From: an uncultured bacterium
GTDB lineage: Bacteria > Abyssobacteria > SURF-5
NCBI GenBank assembly: GCA_964607485.1
Contig: CAZSKP010000005.1
Coordinates: forward strand, 32,001-96,000
DNA length: 64,000 nucleotides
Direction of reading: 5' to 3'
Numbering within the stretch: position 1 is the first letter of the stretch; every line of letters starts with the position of its first letter. The position numbers were made by a program, and so were the translations under genes. Shown here piece by piece: positions 54,798-64,000 of the stretch. Under the pieces are notes generated by a model, which saw only the letters and a list, made by a program, of their open reading frames with translations, was not told where the DNA came from and searched no databases.

Positions 54798-55215
54798 TTT
54801 CAGGGTTCCTTGCTATTGCGGCCACTCGCTGGACGAGCTCCTCTATGAGGTGAGGAATCGGCTCGTCCTTCAAGCCGACAACCTCGATGCCGGCCGACTT
54901 GAGCGGCATCACAATCTTATGGGCCCGGCTCTGAACGATTGCTTCAACCATGCCGGGGGTTATCTCGCCGAGCATCGAATGCGGCTGAAGAATCGCAAGC
55001 CCGCCCGTGATGATGTCCAGCCGGGGCGATGTTTGGCTGATGGCGTTCTCGCCCGAGGCGCCCTTGTTCGCGCCCGCCTTCATCATGTTGGCCGTGGCGA
55101 TGGCGTTCGTCCCGAGCGCCACTATCTCCGTCTCCTCGGGCAGGGCCTTGCGCAGCCGCTCGACCACATGCGCTCCGATTCCGCCGCCCTGTCCGTCCAC
55201 CACGCCAACTATCAC
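54790..55215 (-). CDS. DUF3842 family protein
   Basis: VVDGQGGGIG, ALGTNAIAT..M.KAGA..GASGENA, SMLGEITP. Overlaps cooT by 8 nt. Confidence 0.85.
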   Translation of the reverse strand: MIVGVVDGQGGGIGAHVVERLRKALPEETEIVALGTNAIATANMMKAGANKGASGENAISQTSPRLDIITGGLAILQPHSMLGEITPGMVEAIVQSRAHKIVMPLKSAGIEVVGLKDEPIPHLIEELVQRVAAIARNPENV

Positions 55216-55248
55216 GGTCGCACCCGATTCGAATTGTCTTACGGAACA

Positions 55249-55277
55249 AGGATAACAGAATGGCGCGTGTTAGTCAA
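55249..55277 (-). promoter_or_regulatory. sigma70-type promoter of the DUF3842-cooT-transporter operon
   Basis: Minus strand TTGACT-17-TATCCT with TG extended -10. Confidence 0.6.
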
Positions 55278-55554
55278 GAAGGCGATCGGGAGAATGAAAG
55301 TCGCGGGAATCGTGATAAGTTATGCTCGACCATATGGCCGTGCCGAGTCGTTCCAATCTGAACGTGAAACCGTTCTGGAGATTTCGGCGGGGCGCATCAA
55401 GACCTCGGAGGATGGCACCCATGCTATAATGAAGTCAGGCCTGCTCAGGGGGGAAGTATGCTCCGGGTTGAAATGGACAGGCCATACCAACGAAACGGGG
55501 CGATACTCGGATTTCTTCCAGTCCGCCGCAATACAGTTTTCTGGAAGCCGTCAC

Positions 55555-57354
55555 ATGAGGAAGCGATTTTTCAAAGCGAACTCGCTGATTGCAGTTTGTT
55601 GGGTACTCTTTGCAATCAGCAGTTTCTATCTTGCCTGGTCACTATGCAACCTTCAGGTAGATTGGGACAGGGGGCCCGACTCACTTCCGGCTTTCTATCG
55701 GCTGCAGTATAGCTTGATTGGAGTGTTGGCCTTTTTCTTCCTCTGGCATCTGATTGCTCTGATTTCGGCCATCCTTACGGGTCAAGAATTGAGAACTATT
55801 CTGACGAAATACTCTTTGTCGTGTGTGTCCTTTCTGGCCGTGGTTATCACAAACAATCAGGCACAGGGATATTTGGAGGGAGAATTCGCCCGGCTTTCGA
55901 CGACCGATTTCCTCTTGCCAGGAACGATTCCGGAAGCAGCGCGCACAGATATGCTGTTTCTTGGGATGGTCGTCGTCCCATCGCTCTTATTGTTTCTGGC
56001 AATTCTCCTGGGGGTTCTGAGGAAGTCGAAGTTGAGGGCCGTTCACGGACTGTTTCGACTCAAGCCGATGTTGAATCTCATGCTGCTCATTCTCACGGCG
56101 GTCGGATGGAATCATTGGCGGTATGCGGTATTTGAGCGAGGCGAGGGGGAGCCGAATATCTTGTTTATCGTTTGTGATGCGATGCGCGCAGACCATCTGG
56201 GCTGCTATGGATATTCGAGAAACACGACCCCCTGCCTGGACCAATTAGCCAGAGAGGGAGTTGTATTCTCAAACTTCACTGCTGCTTCCAGCTGGAGCCT
56301 GCCGTCCTATACGGCGATGTATACATCACGATATTTTTCATACTACGACGATTCCATTGCGAGACCTCGGTGCGCGGGAAGGGCGTTGACCATGACTCAG
56401 ATTCTGACCAATCAGCACTACTACACGAAGGCCCTCCTTTCAAATGTCTTTGCTGCAAAATCTTATGGTAGCCCGAAGGTGGACCTGGATATTCATATGA
56501 GCATCGATTCTTCCGGAACATTCAGCCGGACTTTCACCGACCGCGCGCTGGAGCTAATCGAGACAATCAAGGACAAAAGGTTCTTTATTTACTTGCAATA
56601 TATGGACCCGCACGAGCCGTACACGCCGCCAGCACCTTTTGATCAGCTCTTCGTGGACCCGGCAAATAGACTGCTGACCGAGGAAGACAGGAGAAGGAGA
56701 AGCTTCGCCTTATATGACGAAGAAATCGCCTATGTCGATTCTCAAATATCGCGACTCCTTCAACAACTCAAGACTCTAGGCATCTACAATGACACGTTCG
56801 TAGTCGTGACTGCCGACCACGGGCAAGGGTATAGGTTTCACGGATATTCTCTCGATGAGGAACTGCTAAGGGTTCCCTTGATCATTCGCGGACCAGGAAT
56901 CCCCGAGAACAAGAGGGTTGATTCCGTGGCGAGCCATGTTGATCTGTTACCCACATTCATGGAATGGACGATGGGCGAACCGGATGCTCGTTGTCAGGGC
57001 AAGAGTTTAGTACCAATCATACACGGGACAGATGCTGAAGATCACATTGTCTTCGCCGAACTGGATCTTCCTTTCCTTCCTCTACAACCCGGGTTACCAC
57101 CTGAGCATCATCTCGTCAGCGTAAGGAAGGGGTGTTGGAAACTTGTCACCGGAGACCCGAGAGGAGAGCTGCTGTTCGACCTGGAAAAGGACCCGGCGGA
57201 AAAAACCAATCTTGCGGAAGCGAAACGGCAAATTGTGGCCGACTTGAGCGCCAAAATCGATGAGTTCGAGAATGGCATGCCAGAGAAGCAGGCCCTGTTC
57301 TCATACTCTCAGAAGGAATTGGAGGCTTTGAAGGACCTGGGATATATTCAATGA
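55555..57354 (+). CDS. Membrane-anchored sulfatase-like (alkaline phosphatase superfamily) protein
   Basis: About 5 N-terminal TM segments, PNILFIVCDAMRADHLGCYG, WSLPSY, MDPHEPY, ADHG, LFDLEKDP.E. Confidence 0.85.
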   Translation: MRKRFFKANSLIAVCWVLFAISSFYLAWSLCNLQVDWDRGPDSLPAFYRLQYSLIGVLAFFFLWHLIALISAILTGQELRTILTKYSLSCVSFLAVVITNNQAQGYLEGEFARLSTTDFLLPGTIPEAARTDMLFLGMVVVPSLLLFLAILLGVLRKSKLRAVHGLFRLKPMLNLMLLILTAVGWNHWRYAVFERGEGEPNILFIVCDAMRADHLGCYGYSRNTTPCLDQLAREGVVFSNFTAASSWSLPSYTAMYTSRYFSYYDDSIARPRCAGRALTMTQILTNQHYYTKALLSNVFAAKSYGSPKVDLDIHMSIDSSGTFSRTFTDRALELIETIKDKRFFIYLQYMDPHEPYTPPAPFDQLFVDPANRLLTEEDRRRRSFALYDEEIAYVDSQISRLLQQLKTLGIYNDTFVVVTADHGQGYRFHGYSLDEELLRVPLIIRGPGIPENKRVDSVASHVDLLPTFMEWTMGEPDARCQGKSLVPIIHGTDAEDHIVFAELDLPFLPLQPGLPPEHHLVSVRKGCWKLVTGDPRGELLFDLEKDPAEKTNLAEAKRQIVADLSAKIDEFENGMPEKQALFSYSQKELEALKDLGYIQ

Positions 57355-59755: not shown

Positions 59756-61114
59756 TTGGAGCTTTTTGAAGAAGAGCAGAGGCGCCTGAAGGAAAAGAAC
59801 GCGCCGCTCGCGTGGAGGATGGCGCCGCAGACGCTCGATGAACTGGTCGGCCAGGAGCAGCTCATCGGAGAGGGCAAGCTGCTGAGGCGCGAGATCGAGT
59901 CGGACCGGCTCGCCACCGCAATCTTCTATGGCCCGCCCGGCACGGGCAAGACGGCGCTCGCGCGCATTATCGCTAAGACCTCGAAGGCGTCGTTCCAGCG
60001 GCTGAACGCCGTCACCTCGGGCGTCGCCGACCTGAGACAACTCATCGACGGCGCTCGCCAGCGGATGGTCGCGTCCGGCCGCAAGACCATCGTGTTCGTC
60101 GATGAGATACACCGGTTCAACCGCGCGCAGCAGGATGCGCTCCTGCCCGACGTCGAAGAAGGCACGATAACGTTCATCGGCGCGACCACGCAGAACCCGT
60201 TCTTCGCCGTCACGGCGCCGCTCGTCTCGCGCTCGCAGATTTTCCAGTTTCAGCCGCTCCGGCCCGACGACATCGCCGCGCTGCTCGACCGCGCGCTCGC
60301 CGACGAAGAGCACGGACTGGGCAAAATGAAAATCCGCCTCGACGCCGAGGCACGCAGCCATTGGGCGAACACGTCTGACGGCGACGCCCGCCGCGCGCTG
60401 AACGCGCTCGAGGTGGCCGCGATGACGACCCCGCCTGACGCGGACGGCGTCGTGCGCATCACGCTCGAGATTGCGCAGGAATCCATCCAGCGCAAGGCCA
60501 TCGTGTACGACGGAACCGGCGACGACCATTACGACACCATTTCGGCGTTCATCAAGAGCATGCGCGGCTCCGACCCCGACGCCGCCATCTATTGGCTCGC
60601 TAAGATGCTCGAAGCGGGCGAAGACCCCCGCTTCATCGCGCGCAGGATCGTCATCTGCGCGTCCGAGGACGTGGGCAACGCCGATCCGCGGGCGCTTGCG
60701 GTGGCCGTCGCGGCGATGCAGGCGAGCGAGTTCGTCGGCATGCCCGAGGCGCAGATACCGCTTGCGCAGGCGACTATCTACGTCGCGTGCGCCCCCAAGA
60801 GCAACGCGAGCTACATGGCGATTTCAGACGCGCGCAAGGACGTGCGCGAGCAGCCGACGTTTCCCGTGCCCAAACACCTGCGCGACGCGAACTATCCCGG
60901 CGCCAAGCGGTTCGGTCACGGCGAGGGCTACAAATACGCGCACGATTTTCCCGGCCACCACGTCGAGCAGCTCTACGGCCCGCCCGACAAAAACCTCTAC
61001 ACCCCCACCACTCACGGCTACGAGGCCGAGATCAAGAAACGGCTGGAGGAGTTGAGGAAGACTAAAGACACTGAACAGAGGCATGAAGCGAAGAAGCCGA
61101 AGGGAAAGGCGTGA
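59756..61114 (+). CDS. rarA: Replication-associated recombination protein A
   Basis: APLA.RM.P, GPPGTGKT, DEIHRFN.AQQD, HYDTISAFIKSMRGSDPD, SEDVGNADP. Confidence 0.96.
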   Translation: MELFEEEQRRLKEKNAPLAWRMAPQTLDELVGQEQLIGEGKLLRREIESDRLATAIFYGPPGTGKTALARIIAKTSKASFQRLNAVTSGVADLRQLIDGARQRMVASGRKTIVFVDEIHRFNRAQQDALLPDVEEGTITFIGATTQNPFFAVTAPLVSRSQIFQFQPLRPDDIAALLDRALADEEHGLGKMKIRLDAEARSHWANTSDGDARRALNALEVAAMTTPPDADGVVRITLEIAQESIQRKAIVYDGTGDDHYDTISAFIKSMRGSDPDAAIYWLAKMLEAGEDPRFIARRIVICASEDVGNADPRALAVAVAAMQASEFVGMPEAQIPLAQATIYVACAPKSNASYMAISDARKDVREQPTFPVPKHLRDANYPGAKRFGHGEGYKYAHDFPGHHVEQLYGPPDKNLYTPTTHGYEAEIKKRLEELRKTKDTEQRHEAKKPKGKA

Positions 61115-61127
61115 GTACTTACCTACA

Positions 61128-62303
61128 TCATAGCCTGGCAATATCCATCGAACGATCCTGCGCAAATCCATTCAGTGCATCGAGAGATGCATCAAGAACG
61201 CTGTCGAACGCCCTCGTACCTGGTCGGAATCCTCCCCTAACGAGCGTTTCGAGCTTGGTTATGACATCTTCCAACAAGGATCTGACGGCCAGTAGTCGAT
61301 TCCTTCGCTCAGTAGCCTCGAACTGACACCATTGGCGATGTATCTCATGAAGAAAATGTCTGAAAGATTCTCCCTCCCTCCATGCGACACTGGAAGGAGT
61401 TTGCGCTGAAAGCAGAGACTCACAATGGTTGCAGATAGGACCGAAGCGACCCTTCAGCCCTCGTCGGTATGCCAAGTCTAACGCTTCTATCCTGTACTCA
61501 CTTAATGTGTCTGCATCGTAGTACCATGTCCTTCTTCTTTGTTCCTCATCTTCTGAAGGTATGTCAAATATTCCTGAGTTAAAAGAGCGAGTGTTCCTGA
61601 AATTGCCGCTTGCTAGCGTTTCAACCCCTGCCGCAGCATAGATTAAGCTCTGTTGATTTCCGTATCCCAATAGTACCCTCTTGCCCCCAAGCTCGACGCT
61701 CAGAAAACCATCCAGCAGAGAATATAAGAATAGTTCATTCGTAACTAGAAATGATGGAGACTGGATGACGAAGTAAACGCCATGAACGGGATAGTTAACA
61801 ACTTCATCGAGAACGGTATCGAACGCTTCTGTGTTTGTAACGACATCCGGGCCCAAGGAGATCGTGCTGTAAACAGGACGGTCAAGCTTCAGCTCGGGTA
61901 CGATTTGCGCGAAACCGGCCTGAGTTGCCAGCCAATCCTCATTTACTGAGTTCGTATAACGTCCGGGAAGAATGATTTCAGAGACATTCAGCGTCTCAAT
62001 CTGGTATTCAACAACTCGCTGTGCAAAAGAGCCAGCCTCACCATTGGCAAATTCTCCGCTTTCAAATTCAACACCGTTCCAGTAGGGATAATCCAAGATC
62101 TTTTCTCTTTCTGTACGTGGCTGATAGAATTGTGGATCGAACATGACGAGCCCACCAAGCTCGAGAATCTCCCTCGCATGACGCTCAATCTGCTCTCTTC
62201 GATACACCCTCGGGGATAGAATTACGCCCGATCCGGGATGAGCCCGCACAAACTCTCTGTCGAGAGGCATCATCTGGTGTCCCTGTTGTAACAAGAATCT
62301 CAT
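61128..62303 (-). CDS. Hypothetical alpha/beta-barrel protein (beta-family/TGT-like), defence candidate
   Basis: 391-aa ORF with ATGA overlap on the kinase stop. GVILSPR, FDPQFY, IILPG, CNHC...HFL. The fold is an inference. Confidence 0.7.
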   Translation of the reverse strand: MRFLLQQGHQMMPLDREFVRAHPGSGVILSPRVYRREQIERHAREILELGGLVMFDPQFYQPRTEREKILDYPYWNGVEFESGEFANGEAGSFAQRVVEYQIETLNVSEIILPGRYTNSVNEDWLATQAGFAQIVPELKLDRPVYSTISLGPDVVTNTEAFDTVLDEVVNYPVHGVYFVIQSPSFLVTNELFLYSLLDGFLSVELGGKRVLLGYGNQQSLIYAAAGVETLASGNFRNTRSFNSGIFDIPSEDEEQRRRTWYYDADTLSEYRIEALDLAYRRGLKGRFGPICNHCESLLSAQTPSSVAWREGESFRHFLHEIHRQWCQFEATERRNRLLAVRSLLEDVITKLETLVRGGFRPGTRAFDSVLDASLDALNGFAQDRSMDIARL

Positions 62304-63163
62304 CTGTCCCCCCAATCTAGAGATCGAAATTGGCTGAGAGCCATAGCGGCATTTCCAAGTCGCCGGTGAACTGTTTTCTTTAGACAAGACTTCACAAAAT
62401 CGGAAACGCTTTCCGAAAAGCCAAGTCTACTTAGCGGAACCGGTTCAGATGAGAGACAGCGCCTCATGGCCTCTGTTGCTGAAGCGTTTTCCGTAAATGG
62501 ATTGCGCCCTGTAAGACACTCATAAATAACCACACCAAGTGCAAACAAGTCAGTTCTAATGCTGATTTTCCTCTTTTCATTTCTGATTTGCTCTGGCGCA
62601 GAGTATCCTGGAGTAAGTGGGCCATACAGAGCGTAATCCGCCGTAAGGGATTTTAAATCCAAGTGTCGGGCAATTCCGAAGTCTATGAGCAGTATTCTTT
62701 CTCCTTGTCCGAACATGATGTTTTCGGGTTTTATGTCACGGTGAACTAAGGCAGCCTCCTCAACTCTTACTAACGCTTCCAAGACGTTCTCGCCAATCCG
62801 CTTGGTTTCGTCGATAGGCAGGTTCCCTTCGTGCTGAAGTCGGTCCCGCAATGAGCCGCCCTCAAGAAATTCTTCAACAAGGAACACCGCTTTGTGATCT
62901 TTGATTCTAACGCCTCCAAAATCATGCAGCTTTGCGAACCACGGGCCAGCGAGCTTGGAGGAAACCTCTATTTCTCGCAAAACTCGCTTCTCCACCTTAT
63001 CATCGTCCGTACAAATAATCTTTAGAGCCACCAAGCCCGCTTCTTTTGATAAAGCTCTAAAGACAACTTTGTATCCGCCGCGAGCTACTTCACCATCCAT
63101 AGAAAGACTAGGAAAAAGCTCTGCAGCTTCTTTGGTGCTAATGGGAAAAGCTTCTTTTATCAT
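62300..63163 (-). CDS. Standalone Hanks-type Ser/Thr protein kinase
   Basis: RGGYKVV, VALK, REIE, HRDIKPEN, DFG, TPGYSAPEQ, DLFALG. Confidence 0.95.
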   Translation of the reverse strand: MIKEAFPISTKEAAELFPSLSMDGEVARGGYKVVFRALSKEAGLVALKIICTDDDKVEKRVLREIEVSSKLAGPWFAKLHDFGGVRIKDHKAVFLVEEFLEGGSLRDRLQHEGNLPIDETKRIGENVLEALVRVEEAALVHRDIKPENIMFGQGERILLIDFGIARHLDLKSLTADYALYGPLTPGYSAPEQIRNEKRKISIRTDLFALGVVIYECLTGRNPFTENASATEAMRRCLSSEPVPLSRLGFSESVSDFVKSCLKKTVHRRLGNAAMALSQFRSLDWGDR

Positions 63164-63824
63164 TTGCTAATCCGTCAACGAGTTGTTCGTTTAGACTCCA
63201 CGCCAAATACGTGTTTCTTGGCTTTCGGCACTGCGGGGCTAGAAGGATCCGGAATGAATGGTCTTTTTCAATAACTATGAGGCCGACTTCACGCATCCTG
63301 CAACTTTCTATGACTTTCTGAAGAAACCTTTCTTTCATCCTTGGGATCAGAACATATGAATCTCCCGTAAACCAGAGATGCCGCTCGGCTTGCTCTACTG
63401 CATTCTTCCACTTCGTCAGCTTGCCTTCATAAGTTGTTATGCGCTTTATGGCAAAAACCTCGCCAAGCGGGCGAGCTCGGATACATCCATTCTTAGAGAG
63501 GACTAGTCGTCTCGACCTAAGTCTGCTTGAGATATCTTTTGCCTCACCGACCGAGCATCGTAGGTGTGCGGCGAGACTGTTTGTCTTGGTCCAACGTCTT
63601 CTTGTAAGTATTTGCATGGCATAAGCGCACGCTTGCGAGAAGTCTGGCATTCCTTTCCTCAAAGATCGTACCCGTCTTGAAATAACGCTCTTCTTATATT
63701 CGACTACCAACACATCCGGACGGCCATAGCGGGTATCAGCCTCTTGCTCCATCCAAATGCTTTTCCCTTTGCCGGTCTCCAAATTCTTCTTAAGGCATGA
63801 TGTGAAGCAATCTACCAACTCCAT
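63138..63824 (-). CDS. PD-(D/E)xK nuclease-like protein with internal winged helix
   Basis: E...GRPDV...YEGKL..W..A..QA...SYV...VGL. Overlaps the kinase by 26 nt. Confidence 0.7.
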   Translation of the reverse strand: MELVDCFTSCLKKNLETGKGKSIWMEQEADTRYGRPDVLVVEYKKSVISRRVRSLRKGMPDFSQACAYAMQILTRRRWTKTNSLAAHLRCSVGEAKDISSRLRSRRLVLSKNGCIRARPLGEVFAIKRITTYEGKLTKWKNAVEQAERHLWFTGDSYVLIPRMKERFLQKVIESCRMREVGLIVIEKDHSFRILLAPQCRKPRNTYLAWSLNEQLVDGLANDKRSFSH

Positions 63825-64000
63825 CTCACTCCGCCAAATCATATCACGAACCTTTCATTGCTCAAGTCTATATACGCTTAACTTCCATTATTATACCACA
63901 AACCAACGCTGACAAGTCTGAACTCAGCCAAGAAAAGGCAGGATGCCCTATATCTTGTCTTGACCTTGACCCCTTTACCATTCTAATTTCGAGGGTGTGC

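Follow-up and report, generated by a model that had tools for sequence, protein, structure and literature searches.

The stretch analysed here (hereafter the window) comprises 64,000 nucleotides of contig CAZSKP010000005.1 from an uncultured bacterium of the Abyssobacteria lineage SURF-5. Near its right end lies a cassette of three genes, here called A, K and C, which encode a predicted nuclease with an inserted winged helix, a Ser/Thr kinase and a predicted barrel of the tRNA-guanine transglycosylase (TGT) fold. The coordinates of the cassette and its features are collected in Table 1. All three open reading frames (ORFs) are intact and lie on the minus strand. Genes A and K overlap by 26 nt (63138-63163), and the stop of K and the start of C overlap by 4 nt as ATGA (62300-62303). 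The ORF list offered a longer TTG start for gene C at 62387, which is unneeded; the ATG at 62303 suffices, since Q6 and G8, numbered from it, are conserved. Gene C and the neighbouring AAA+ ATPase gene are convergent with 13 nt between them, and no terminator was seen in this interval. The ATPase gene is putatively rarA, a label carried over from the sequence-only reading. That reading had also described the chained minus-strand genes and an extended -10 element ahead of them. The ORF coordinates bear out the former, and the latter holds as well: TGnTATAAT occurs five times in the window against 0.25 expected, and none of 100 shuffles reaches five. A plain sigma-70 two-hexamer scan of the region gave 3 sites against 3.4 expected and thus no enrichment.

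Table 1. Features of the A-K-C cassette and its flank (positions in the window)
Feature	Position	Strand	Length	Description
Gene A	63138-63842	-	234 aa	Predicted PD-(D/E)xK nuclease with inserted winged helix
Winged-helix insert of gene A	63447-63659	-		About residues 62-132
Gene K	62300-63163	-	287 aa	Stand-alone Hanks-type RD Ser/Thr kinase
Gene C	61128-62303	-	391 aa	Predicted TIM barrel of the TGT fold; hairpin and helical extension at the C-terminus
Extended -10, TGGTATAAT	63890-63898	-		47 nt 5' of gene A; consensus match
TTGTCA, -35-like hexamer	63910-63915			Near the candidate extended -10
Shine-Dalgarno-like GAAAGGT	63850-63856	-		7 nt 5' of the gene A ATG; read from the sequence
AAA+ ATPase gene (rarA), host flank	59756-61114	+		Left edge of the insertion

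Structural comparisons were carried out with the predicted model of the gene C product (predicted local distance difference test, pLDDT, 95.6). The closest match was the archaeosine TGT 1iq8 (VIA Z 20.3, root-mean-square deviation (rmsd) 3.5, 304 residues aligned), followed by the bacterial TGT 3unt (17.9), QTRT2 (15.3) and DpdA (7ui4, 15.2). The best four matches all belong to the TGT family, as do the top matches in Foldseek; the CBASS protein Cap10 (9ntn) scored 13.2 and the best unrelated barrel 14.1. By its model, gene C is a TGT-fold barrel. Sequence searches gave it no name. Pfam, NCBIfam and PADLOC 2.0 hold no family for gene C (0/41 members matched in PADLOC), PF01702 did not match it, and a PDB sequence search with the gene C profile returned nothing below E 0.75. 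The ESM Atlas gave unnamed clusters only (0.95-0.96) and no named match, a blank that does not speak for novelty, and none of the profile-profile comparisons of gene C with TGT, beta and sce7725 was significant. The gene C profile gathered 1,386 representatives at 50% identity, 410 of them at E<=1e-30, from bacteria and archaea. Gene C stands for a large, unannotated TGT-fold family.

The conserved residues of gene C were determined in 114 diverse sequences. They are D56-P57-Q58, Y60, P113, Y177, G213-Y214, G233, N237, R239, F241 and H316, with D56 in 112 sequences (E in the other 2), an aromatic residue at position 60 in 113, Y177 in 111, G233 in all 114, N237 in 100, R239 in 110 and H316 in 101. 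In the model the barrel mouth is ringed by D56, residue 60, Y177, G233, N237 and R239. From strand counting, we take D56 and Y60 to be the first catalytic Asp and the stacking Tyr of TGT and A231 to occupy the position of the nucleophile, which in TGT is an Asp that follows strand 8 (Asp280, numbered as in the Zymomonas enzyme). On the same assumption, the guanine-binding Asp of TGT strand 4 apparently corresponds to the invariant P113. An Asp at positions 229-233 was found in none of the 114 sequences, nor was an acidic residue at 230-233. Gene C has therefore likely lost the TGT nucleophile, with Ala231 in its place; the loss is likely rather than shown because the register was obtained by counting strands and from a profile alignment that is not significant (E 0.16). 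A zinc site formed by C291, C294 and H316 of the present copy was also considered and was rejected, as C291 is found in 4 and C294 in 7 of the 114 sequences.

Gene A carries the putative active-site residues E6, E34, P42-D43, E139-x-K141 and Q151. In a set of 56 homologues, which was not dereplicated and includes near-duplicates, E6, D43, E139, K141 and Q151 are present in all 56 and E34 in 55. The model (pLDDT 94.3) aligned with PaqCI (VIA Z 11.9, rmsd 4.3, 138 residues), Can2 (Z 10.2, rmsd 2.4, 108 residues) and SPO1766 (Z 10.1, rmsd 5.3, 135 residues), and is structurally near a Pyrococcus repair endonuclease too; Foldseek returned no match at E<=0.001. MarR/ArsR-type winged-helix regulators align with the insert, and helix-turn-helix (HTH) models match gene A homologues (Sta1 in 12/47, Lrs14 in 11/47). 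The winged helix splits the active site, being inserted between D43 and E139. Beyond generic winged-helix models in PADLOC, nothing significant was found for gene A in Pfam, PADLOC 2.0 or NCBIfam. Since fold and motif agree, gene A is modelled as a PD-(D/E)xK nuclease with predicted activity, despite the moderate Z values.

Gene K matches Pkinase (E 6e-42), and Pfam assigns it kinase families alone, over residues 25-272. K48, E64, H141-R142-D143, N148 and T174 are present in 61/61 homologues, K145 in 59, D161 in 60, S172 in 56 and T184 in 59; the kinase thus has an RD motif and an invariant activation-loop Thr174. Its most hydrophobic 19-residue window scores 1.4, indicating no transmembrane segment. 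As there is neither such a segment nor room for a sensor, regulation of the kinase would have to come from a partner. Among PADLOC models it matches mad6 (2e-55) and PD-T4-6 (2e-51), and in NCBIfam it reaches 139 bits against a cut-off of 460 for MAD6 and 75 against 990 for PglW. Judged by these scores, the matches are generic kinase matches below the NCBIfam cut-offs. Elsewhere in the genome at least seven Ser/Thr-kinase ORFs lie in tandem (G000:C2:79817-96229; genomes are denoted G and loci L). The sequence-only reading had called gene A a nuclease with a winged HTH, gene K a catalytically intact kinase without transmembrane or sensor domain and gene C a barrel protein. The first call is upheld by motif conservation and structure matches, the second by the motifs, the extent of the Pfam match and the hydrophobicity score, and the third can now be made more specific as a TGT-fold.

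To see the trio elsewhere, homologous loci were collected from metagenomes (80), plasmids (3), viral contigs (3) and genome regions (7), giving 75 non-redundant loci after L047 and G190 were dropped, the latter for an unconfirmed 39-residue match. Of these, 49 had 1.9 kb or more upstream of gene C, and both A and K were present in 46 of the 49; the remaining three are L028 (a C fragment), L142 (a contig end) and L147 (a distant variant without a kinase). The genes were seen in the orders A-K-C, K-C-A (L143) and K-C with a convergent A (L132), with K always directly before C. Across the 46 trios the pairwise identities of A, K and C correlate at 0.78-0.85, which shows co-inheritance and not co-evolution. 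Among the named carriers are Bacillus, Paenibacillus, Desulforamulus, Dehalococcoidia, Thermoleophilaceae and the haloarchaeon Natribaculum. Among 400 sampled genomes, 7 gave a match to a wide profile; one of these matches was not confirmed, which leaves about 6. A single-protein scan of genome contigs gave one weak 28-residue match that a hidden Markov model search did not confirm. Two queries found no match among INPHARED phages, and the viral contigs gave three loci. These results support the trio as a conserved, mobile unit that moves between distant microbes, and answer in the affirmative the question of co-occurrence raised with the first description of the cassette.

Several loci depart from the three-gene form. 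In L147 (9241-12087; G088:C1) a distant C (hhalign 95%) is found with a 143-aa nuclease lacking the winged helix (97%) and no kinase. Ahead of them lie a hydrophobic 170-aa ORF and a 195-aa ORF, of which the latter apparently resembles a SocA/Panacea antitoxin. As this locus has a distant C and a short relative of A but no kinase, A-C looks like the constant core. A PP2C phosphatase lies directly 3' of C in L063 (7217-7942), L069 (7197-7916) and L057 (3986-4720), three related loci in which it was probably gained once. On a haloarchaeal plasmid C is followed by a calcineurin-like phosphoesterase (metallophosphoesterase; L085:11207-11896). A protein of about 210 residues without a Pfam match adjoins the trio in L010 (7209-7835), L013 (7204-7842) and L023 (539-1228) and is a possible fourth component.

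The genomic neighbourhood of the trio was studied by scanning 233 neighbours, all within 4 kb, against Pfam, with defence families classified by hand at E<=1e-12. The families found include type I, III and ISP restriction-modification, BREX, McrBC, AIPR, Kiwa, AbiGi, HipA, RES and DUF4011. A defence neighbour is present at 21/75 loci, at 19/39 with at least 4 kb of flank and at 13/21 with at least 6 kb. The enrichment beside defence genes that the sequence-only reading had envisaged is thus seen, with 19/39 well-flanked loci against 1/20 random 8-kb controls (Fisher p 5e-4), a value that overstates the case because family assignment was manual, related loci raise the count and the controls are drawn from six other genomes. 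No queuosine-pathway genes were found among the 233 scanned neighbours, and there were no dpd or que neighbours. L040 (1601-12074) has the BREX-type order DUF6079, methylase, trio, SNF2 helicase and PglZ, and in L042 and L060 the trio likewise lies within or at the end of BREX-type operons. In the prophage-like L132 (5856-11356) an HTH repressor and an M78 peptidase are followed by the kinase, C, a convergent A and an integrase. The beta locus L126 has the same layout, with a peptidase-like gene, then beta and a nuclease-like gene in convergent orientation.

Base composition was examined for the present copy. The GC content of the cassette is 0.475 against a genome mean of 0.574 (standard deviation 0.031), and 24 of 3252 genome windows are equally low; GC at third codon positions is 0.43-0.49 compared with 0.83-0.86 in the two flanking genes. 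An abrupt drop after the rarA stop, noticed at first sight of the sequence, is confirmed by the GC profile, which falls there from 0.66 to 0.46-0.49 and returns to 0.58 just past the window. Hardly anything beyond the cassette belongs to the low-GC stretch. Gene C was sought in 40 relatives and found in none, including 9/9 genomes of the same family. Orthologues of the upstream ATPase are present in 9 of 10 near relatives. In G006 the ATPase orthologue adjoins the orthologue of the gene that lies past the cassette here, leaving an empty site; in the other 8 orthologous loci this adjacency is not seen within the 1.5 kb fetched, so that there is one clear empty site. The cassette is an insertion. 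No integrase was seen beside it, and neither a target-site duplication nor a terminal repeat was convincing at its edges. A contig from the likely source run, which is not independent, covers the 3' end of rarA and the whole cassette at a depth of 10.3. Its neighbours have depths of 8.6 and 9.3, and this similarity argues against a chimera; none of the four runs of one study yielded a contig that joined across the cassette.

At the upstream edge of the cassette, just past window position 64000, lies a short palindrome resembling repetitive extragenic palindromic (REP) elements (L001:6040-6075), with 67 short BLAST matches in the genome and high depth in all four runs. The empty site of G006 has a different inverted repeat (L117, about 2871-2945). 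The insertion site may be a hot spot. A second lower-GC stretch (about 0.50) at 55200-57350 of the window covers a long membrane/sulfatase-like ORF (54850-57354) and contains a TGnTATAAT at 55422.

Whether the three products could bind one another was addressed by structure prediction. In a three-chain A-K-C prediction with C as partner the score was 0.79, and the best of three controls reached 0.48; the mark for this score is reached by 116/157 solved complexes and 2/215 mismatched pairs, counts that hold only roughly for a three-chain job. At least 89% of the contacts are common to the runs, and the partner pLDDT is 88. In the model, the listed contacts of K are made by residues 191-203 and 255-278 with the outer barrel helices of C (125-129, 162-170 and 199-207); they do not include the kinase catalytic motifs, and the active site is left free. 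The winged helix and the W157-F158 helix of A are placed on the C-terminal extension of C (271-280 and 296-312). The 0.48 control had K replaced and A kept, which is consistent with a separate A-C contact. The prediction supports A-K-C binding, with C between K and A.

Broken copies of the trio were also compared. Internal stops or frameshifts are seen in C at 7/81 loci (6 independent), in K at 0/68 and in A at 0/62. A full-length kinase stands beside the broken C in L014, L020/L021, L051 and L084, and its motifs are intact in L014, in L020/L021 (the same stop in two assemblies) and in L084 (a complete plasmid). Tolerance of a broken C beside full-length K is what one would expect of a C required for switching on the system. 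The absence of broken kinases favours K as an off-switch, from small numbers. K could be the toxic output or the off-switch, and the evidence is split. The sequence-only hypothesis, in which phosphorylation gates an effector that attacks nucleic acids during infection, is supported in part.

With all readings taken together, a role of the trio in defence or conflict is highly probable. The specific mechanism which we place first, tentatively, is a horizontally spread anti-phage or anti-plasmid operon whose three products form one complex, with C as sensor and scaffold and the kinase switched on upon infection. C would be the hub, its base-binding pocket kept and its TGT nucleophile apparently lost, holding K on its outer helices and A on the TGT-specific C-terminal extension. 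A-C would engage a nucleic-acid feature linked to infection, such as foreign, damaged or modified DNA, and would then switch on the sensor-less K through its activation loop. K might phosphorylate the complex, host proteins or both, the nuclease would cut and the infected cell would be arrested. This mechanism is preferred because the kinase has a regulatable loop and, in the model, a free active site, the loss of C is tolerated, L147 is kinase-free and toxic defence kinases are known, as described for KKP (PMC11341870) and DS-6 (PMC13092281).

Several points weigh against the sensor-scaffold mechanism. The equation of Ala231 with the TGT nucleophile comes from strand counting and the alignment at E 0.16. 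Conservation is poor at several interface residues of the model. The list of defence families is a manual classification, with phylogenetically dependent loci and controls from six other genomes. At 20/39 well-flanked loci, and at the present locus, no listed defence neighbour is found. Finally, the lack of broken K and A is unlike an all-activating cascade (about p 0.014 by coding length for 6 independent events, calculated by hand). In a more particular form of the mechanism, which we consider unlikely, C as a pseudo-transglycosylase would flip a modified guanine, e.g. 7-deazaguanine in phage DNA, without exchange, aim the nuclease and switch on the kinase. If true, a dead TGT would have become a modification-dependent restriction enzyme with a kinase relay to abortive infection in one complex.

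The opposite logic has a lesser but real chance of being correct. Here K would keep A-C phosphorylated and silent, and a block or removal of the kinase by the phage, or a phosphatase, would free the nuclease or a barrel toxin. The bias of the broken copies towards C (7/81 against 0/68 for K) is the pattern of an antitoxin beside a toxin, although there are 6 independent breaks only, of which two are frameshifts and may be assembly errors. Conserved Ser/Thr residues lie near the active sites (S162 of A in 41/46; S30, T82 and S232 of C). From established knowledge of kinases, an RD-type enzyme with an invariant activation-loop Thr is suggestive of a K that is itself switched on, and L147 has A-C without a kinase; both speak against this logic. 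A toxin neutralised by phosphorylation has a precedent (PMC7205606), and the T7 kinase is described as disarming defences by phosphorylation (10.1101/2024.12.20.629319).

It is improbable that the trio has no part in defence and is a DNA-damage or stress module, with a repair-type nuclease and kinase signalling, or a selfish addiction cassette of variable regions. It stands beside rarA here and ruvCA in L143, near ruvB in L075 and near lexA and a Y-family polymerase in L063; integrases and transposases are common neighbours, and about half of the loci have no defence neighbour. Such a module is at odds with the patchy occurrence of the trio (about 6/400 sampled genomes, 0/9 same-family genomes), with its placement in or beside BREX and restriction-modification operons and with L132, where it lies between a repressor and an integrase on a prophage-like contig.

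A shade less probable still is an active, base-excising or base-transferring C, in which Asp56 and water would remove a guanine-type base from DNA or tRNA, A would cut at or near the abasic site and K would regulate. The ring of conserved residues around the barrel mouth (D56, aromatic 60, Y177, G233, N237, R239) and the structural nearness of A to SPO1766 and the Pyrococcus repair endonuclease agree with such an enzyme. The 0/114 sequences with an acidic residue at 230-233, the presumed replacement of the strand 4 guanine-binding Asp by the invariant P113 and the absence of queuosine-pathway genes among the 233 neighbours do not. Nucleobase transfer is predicted for related TIM-B barrels (10.64898/2026.10.19.760177). 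Very improbable is a C that is the constitutive antitoxin of a toxic K, as beta is for Gop in P4 gop-beta-cII. Both share the pattern of a TGT-related barrel with a nuclease and a third gene that varies (10.64898/2026.10.19.760177; L126-L128, L132), Gop has toxicity in the absence of beta (PMC9122126), K stays adjacent to C throughout and the complex model supports K-C binding, but that contact leaves out the kinase catalytic motifs, and the reading is disfavoured because C can be lost while K stays, as with the internal stops in C beside full-length, motif-intact K in L014, L020/L021 and L084.

The trio was compared with the known systems. The sequence-only reading had not recognised it as a named system, and this stands: PADLOC 2.0 has no model for C and generic ones only for A and K. 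The trio belongs neither to Dpd, CBASS type IV or KKP nor to any system in PADLOC 2.0, with PD-T4-6, MADS and BREX type 2 included. No published description of it was found in the literature searched, outside subscription journals and supplements. No such trio was found in the passages matched by term searches of a BREX survey (PMC12839542), of DefensePredictor (PMC13092281) and of a modularity-network preprint (10.1101/2025.09.30.679545); PMC9519451 mentions a Ser/Thr kinase system in passages that do not give its make-up.

A Ser/Thr kinase domain is shared with PD-T4-6, Stk2, KKP, DS-6, MADS6 and PglW. PD-T4-6 and Stk2 are single-gene systems, and none of these kinase systems is described, in the portions of the sources consulted, with a TGT-fold barrel and a winged-HTH nuclease. 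KKP has two kinases and a PP2C, whereas here there is one kinase and no phosphatase at the locus; a minority of trio loci do add a phosphatase (PP2C in L057, L063 and L069, i.e. adjacent at 3/75 loci, and the metallophosphoesterase of L085). With TGT, DpdA and Cap10, C shares the TGT fold and the Asp and aromatic residue after strand 3, but it has no Asp at the inferred nucleophile site, no conserved zinc cysteines and no PF01702 match. The sce7725/sce7726/RES loci (NF033831, NF033832) likewise consist of three genes, in which a third gene accompanies sce7725 and the nuclease-like sce7726 (L127, L128), and 1/47 gene A homologues matches NF033832 weakly (E 1.7e-4). However, C against sce7725 gave E 0.63 with a two-sequence profile and A against sce7726 gave E 0.01 (probability 4%, small profile), C does not reach the cut-off of NF033831 nor A that of NF033832, and the third gene is RES-like by ORF reading and not a kinase.

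The closest known systems are the TIM-B/beta systems such as gop-beta-cII, a validated system against phages, giving protection from lambda and P1 (PMC9122126). In a preprint, PF14350 and the TGT fold are brought together, and the TIM-B partners named there are Gop, PAACC, HigB, a nuclease, Pol-beta, GNAT, sirtuin, RES, caspase and 2TM (10.64898/2026.10.19.760177). The trio and the TIM-B/beta systems share a TGT-related barrel with a C-terminal hairpin-helix extension, occur on mobile elements and combine the barrel with a restriction-type nuclease, at times convergent, and with a third gene that varies. The trio differs in that C does not match PF14350 (0/108 members; hhalign to 60 beta sequences E 0.059), in that the beta set keeps an invariant Asp in Y-G-D-Y where C has none, in that a Ser/Thr kinase is absent from the partner list in the text of the preprint, its supplements and figures aside, and in that the winged helix of gene A lies inside the nuclease and is not a C-terminal HeH. 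PF14350 had no match in the genome that carries the cassette.

The trio is a real and widespread three-gene system, apparently undescribed hitherto, on a new TGT-fold family. If the sensor-scaffold mechanism is true, it would be a compact 2.7-kb system of three soluble proteins, with a sensor-less kinase wired directly to a nuclease, and would offer an easy test of the switching of defence kinases and of the direction in which they act, for which the naturally broken alleles and the phosphatase-bearing variants are ready controls. After DNA marking by DpdA and protein marking by Cap10, it would then put the TGT fold to a third use in immunity, here as a sensor and scaffold without catalysis.

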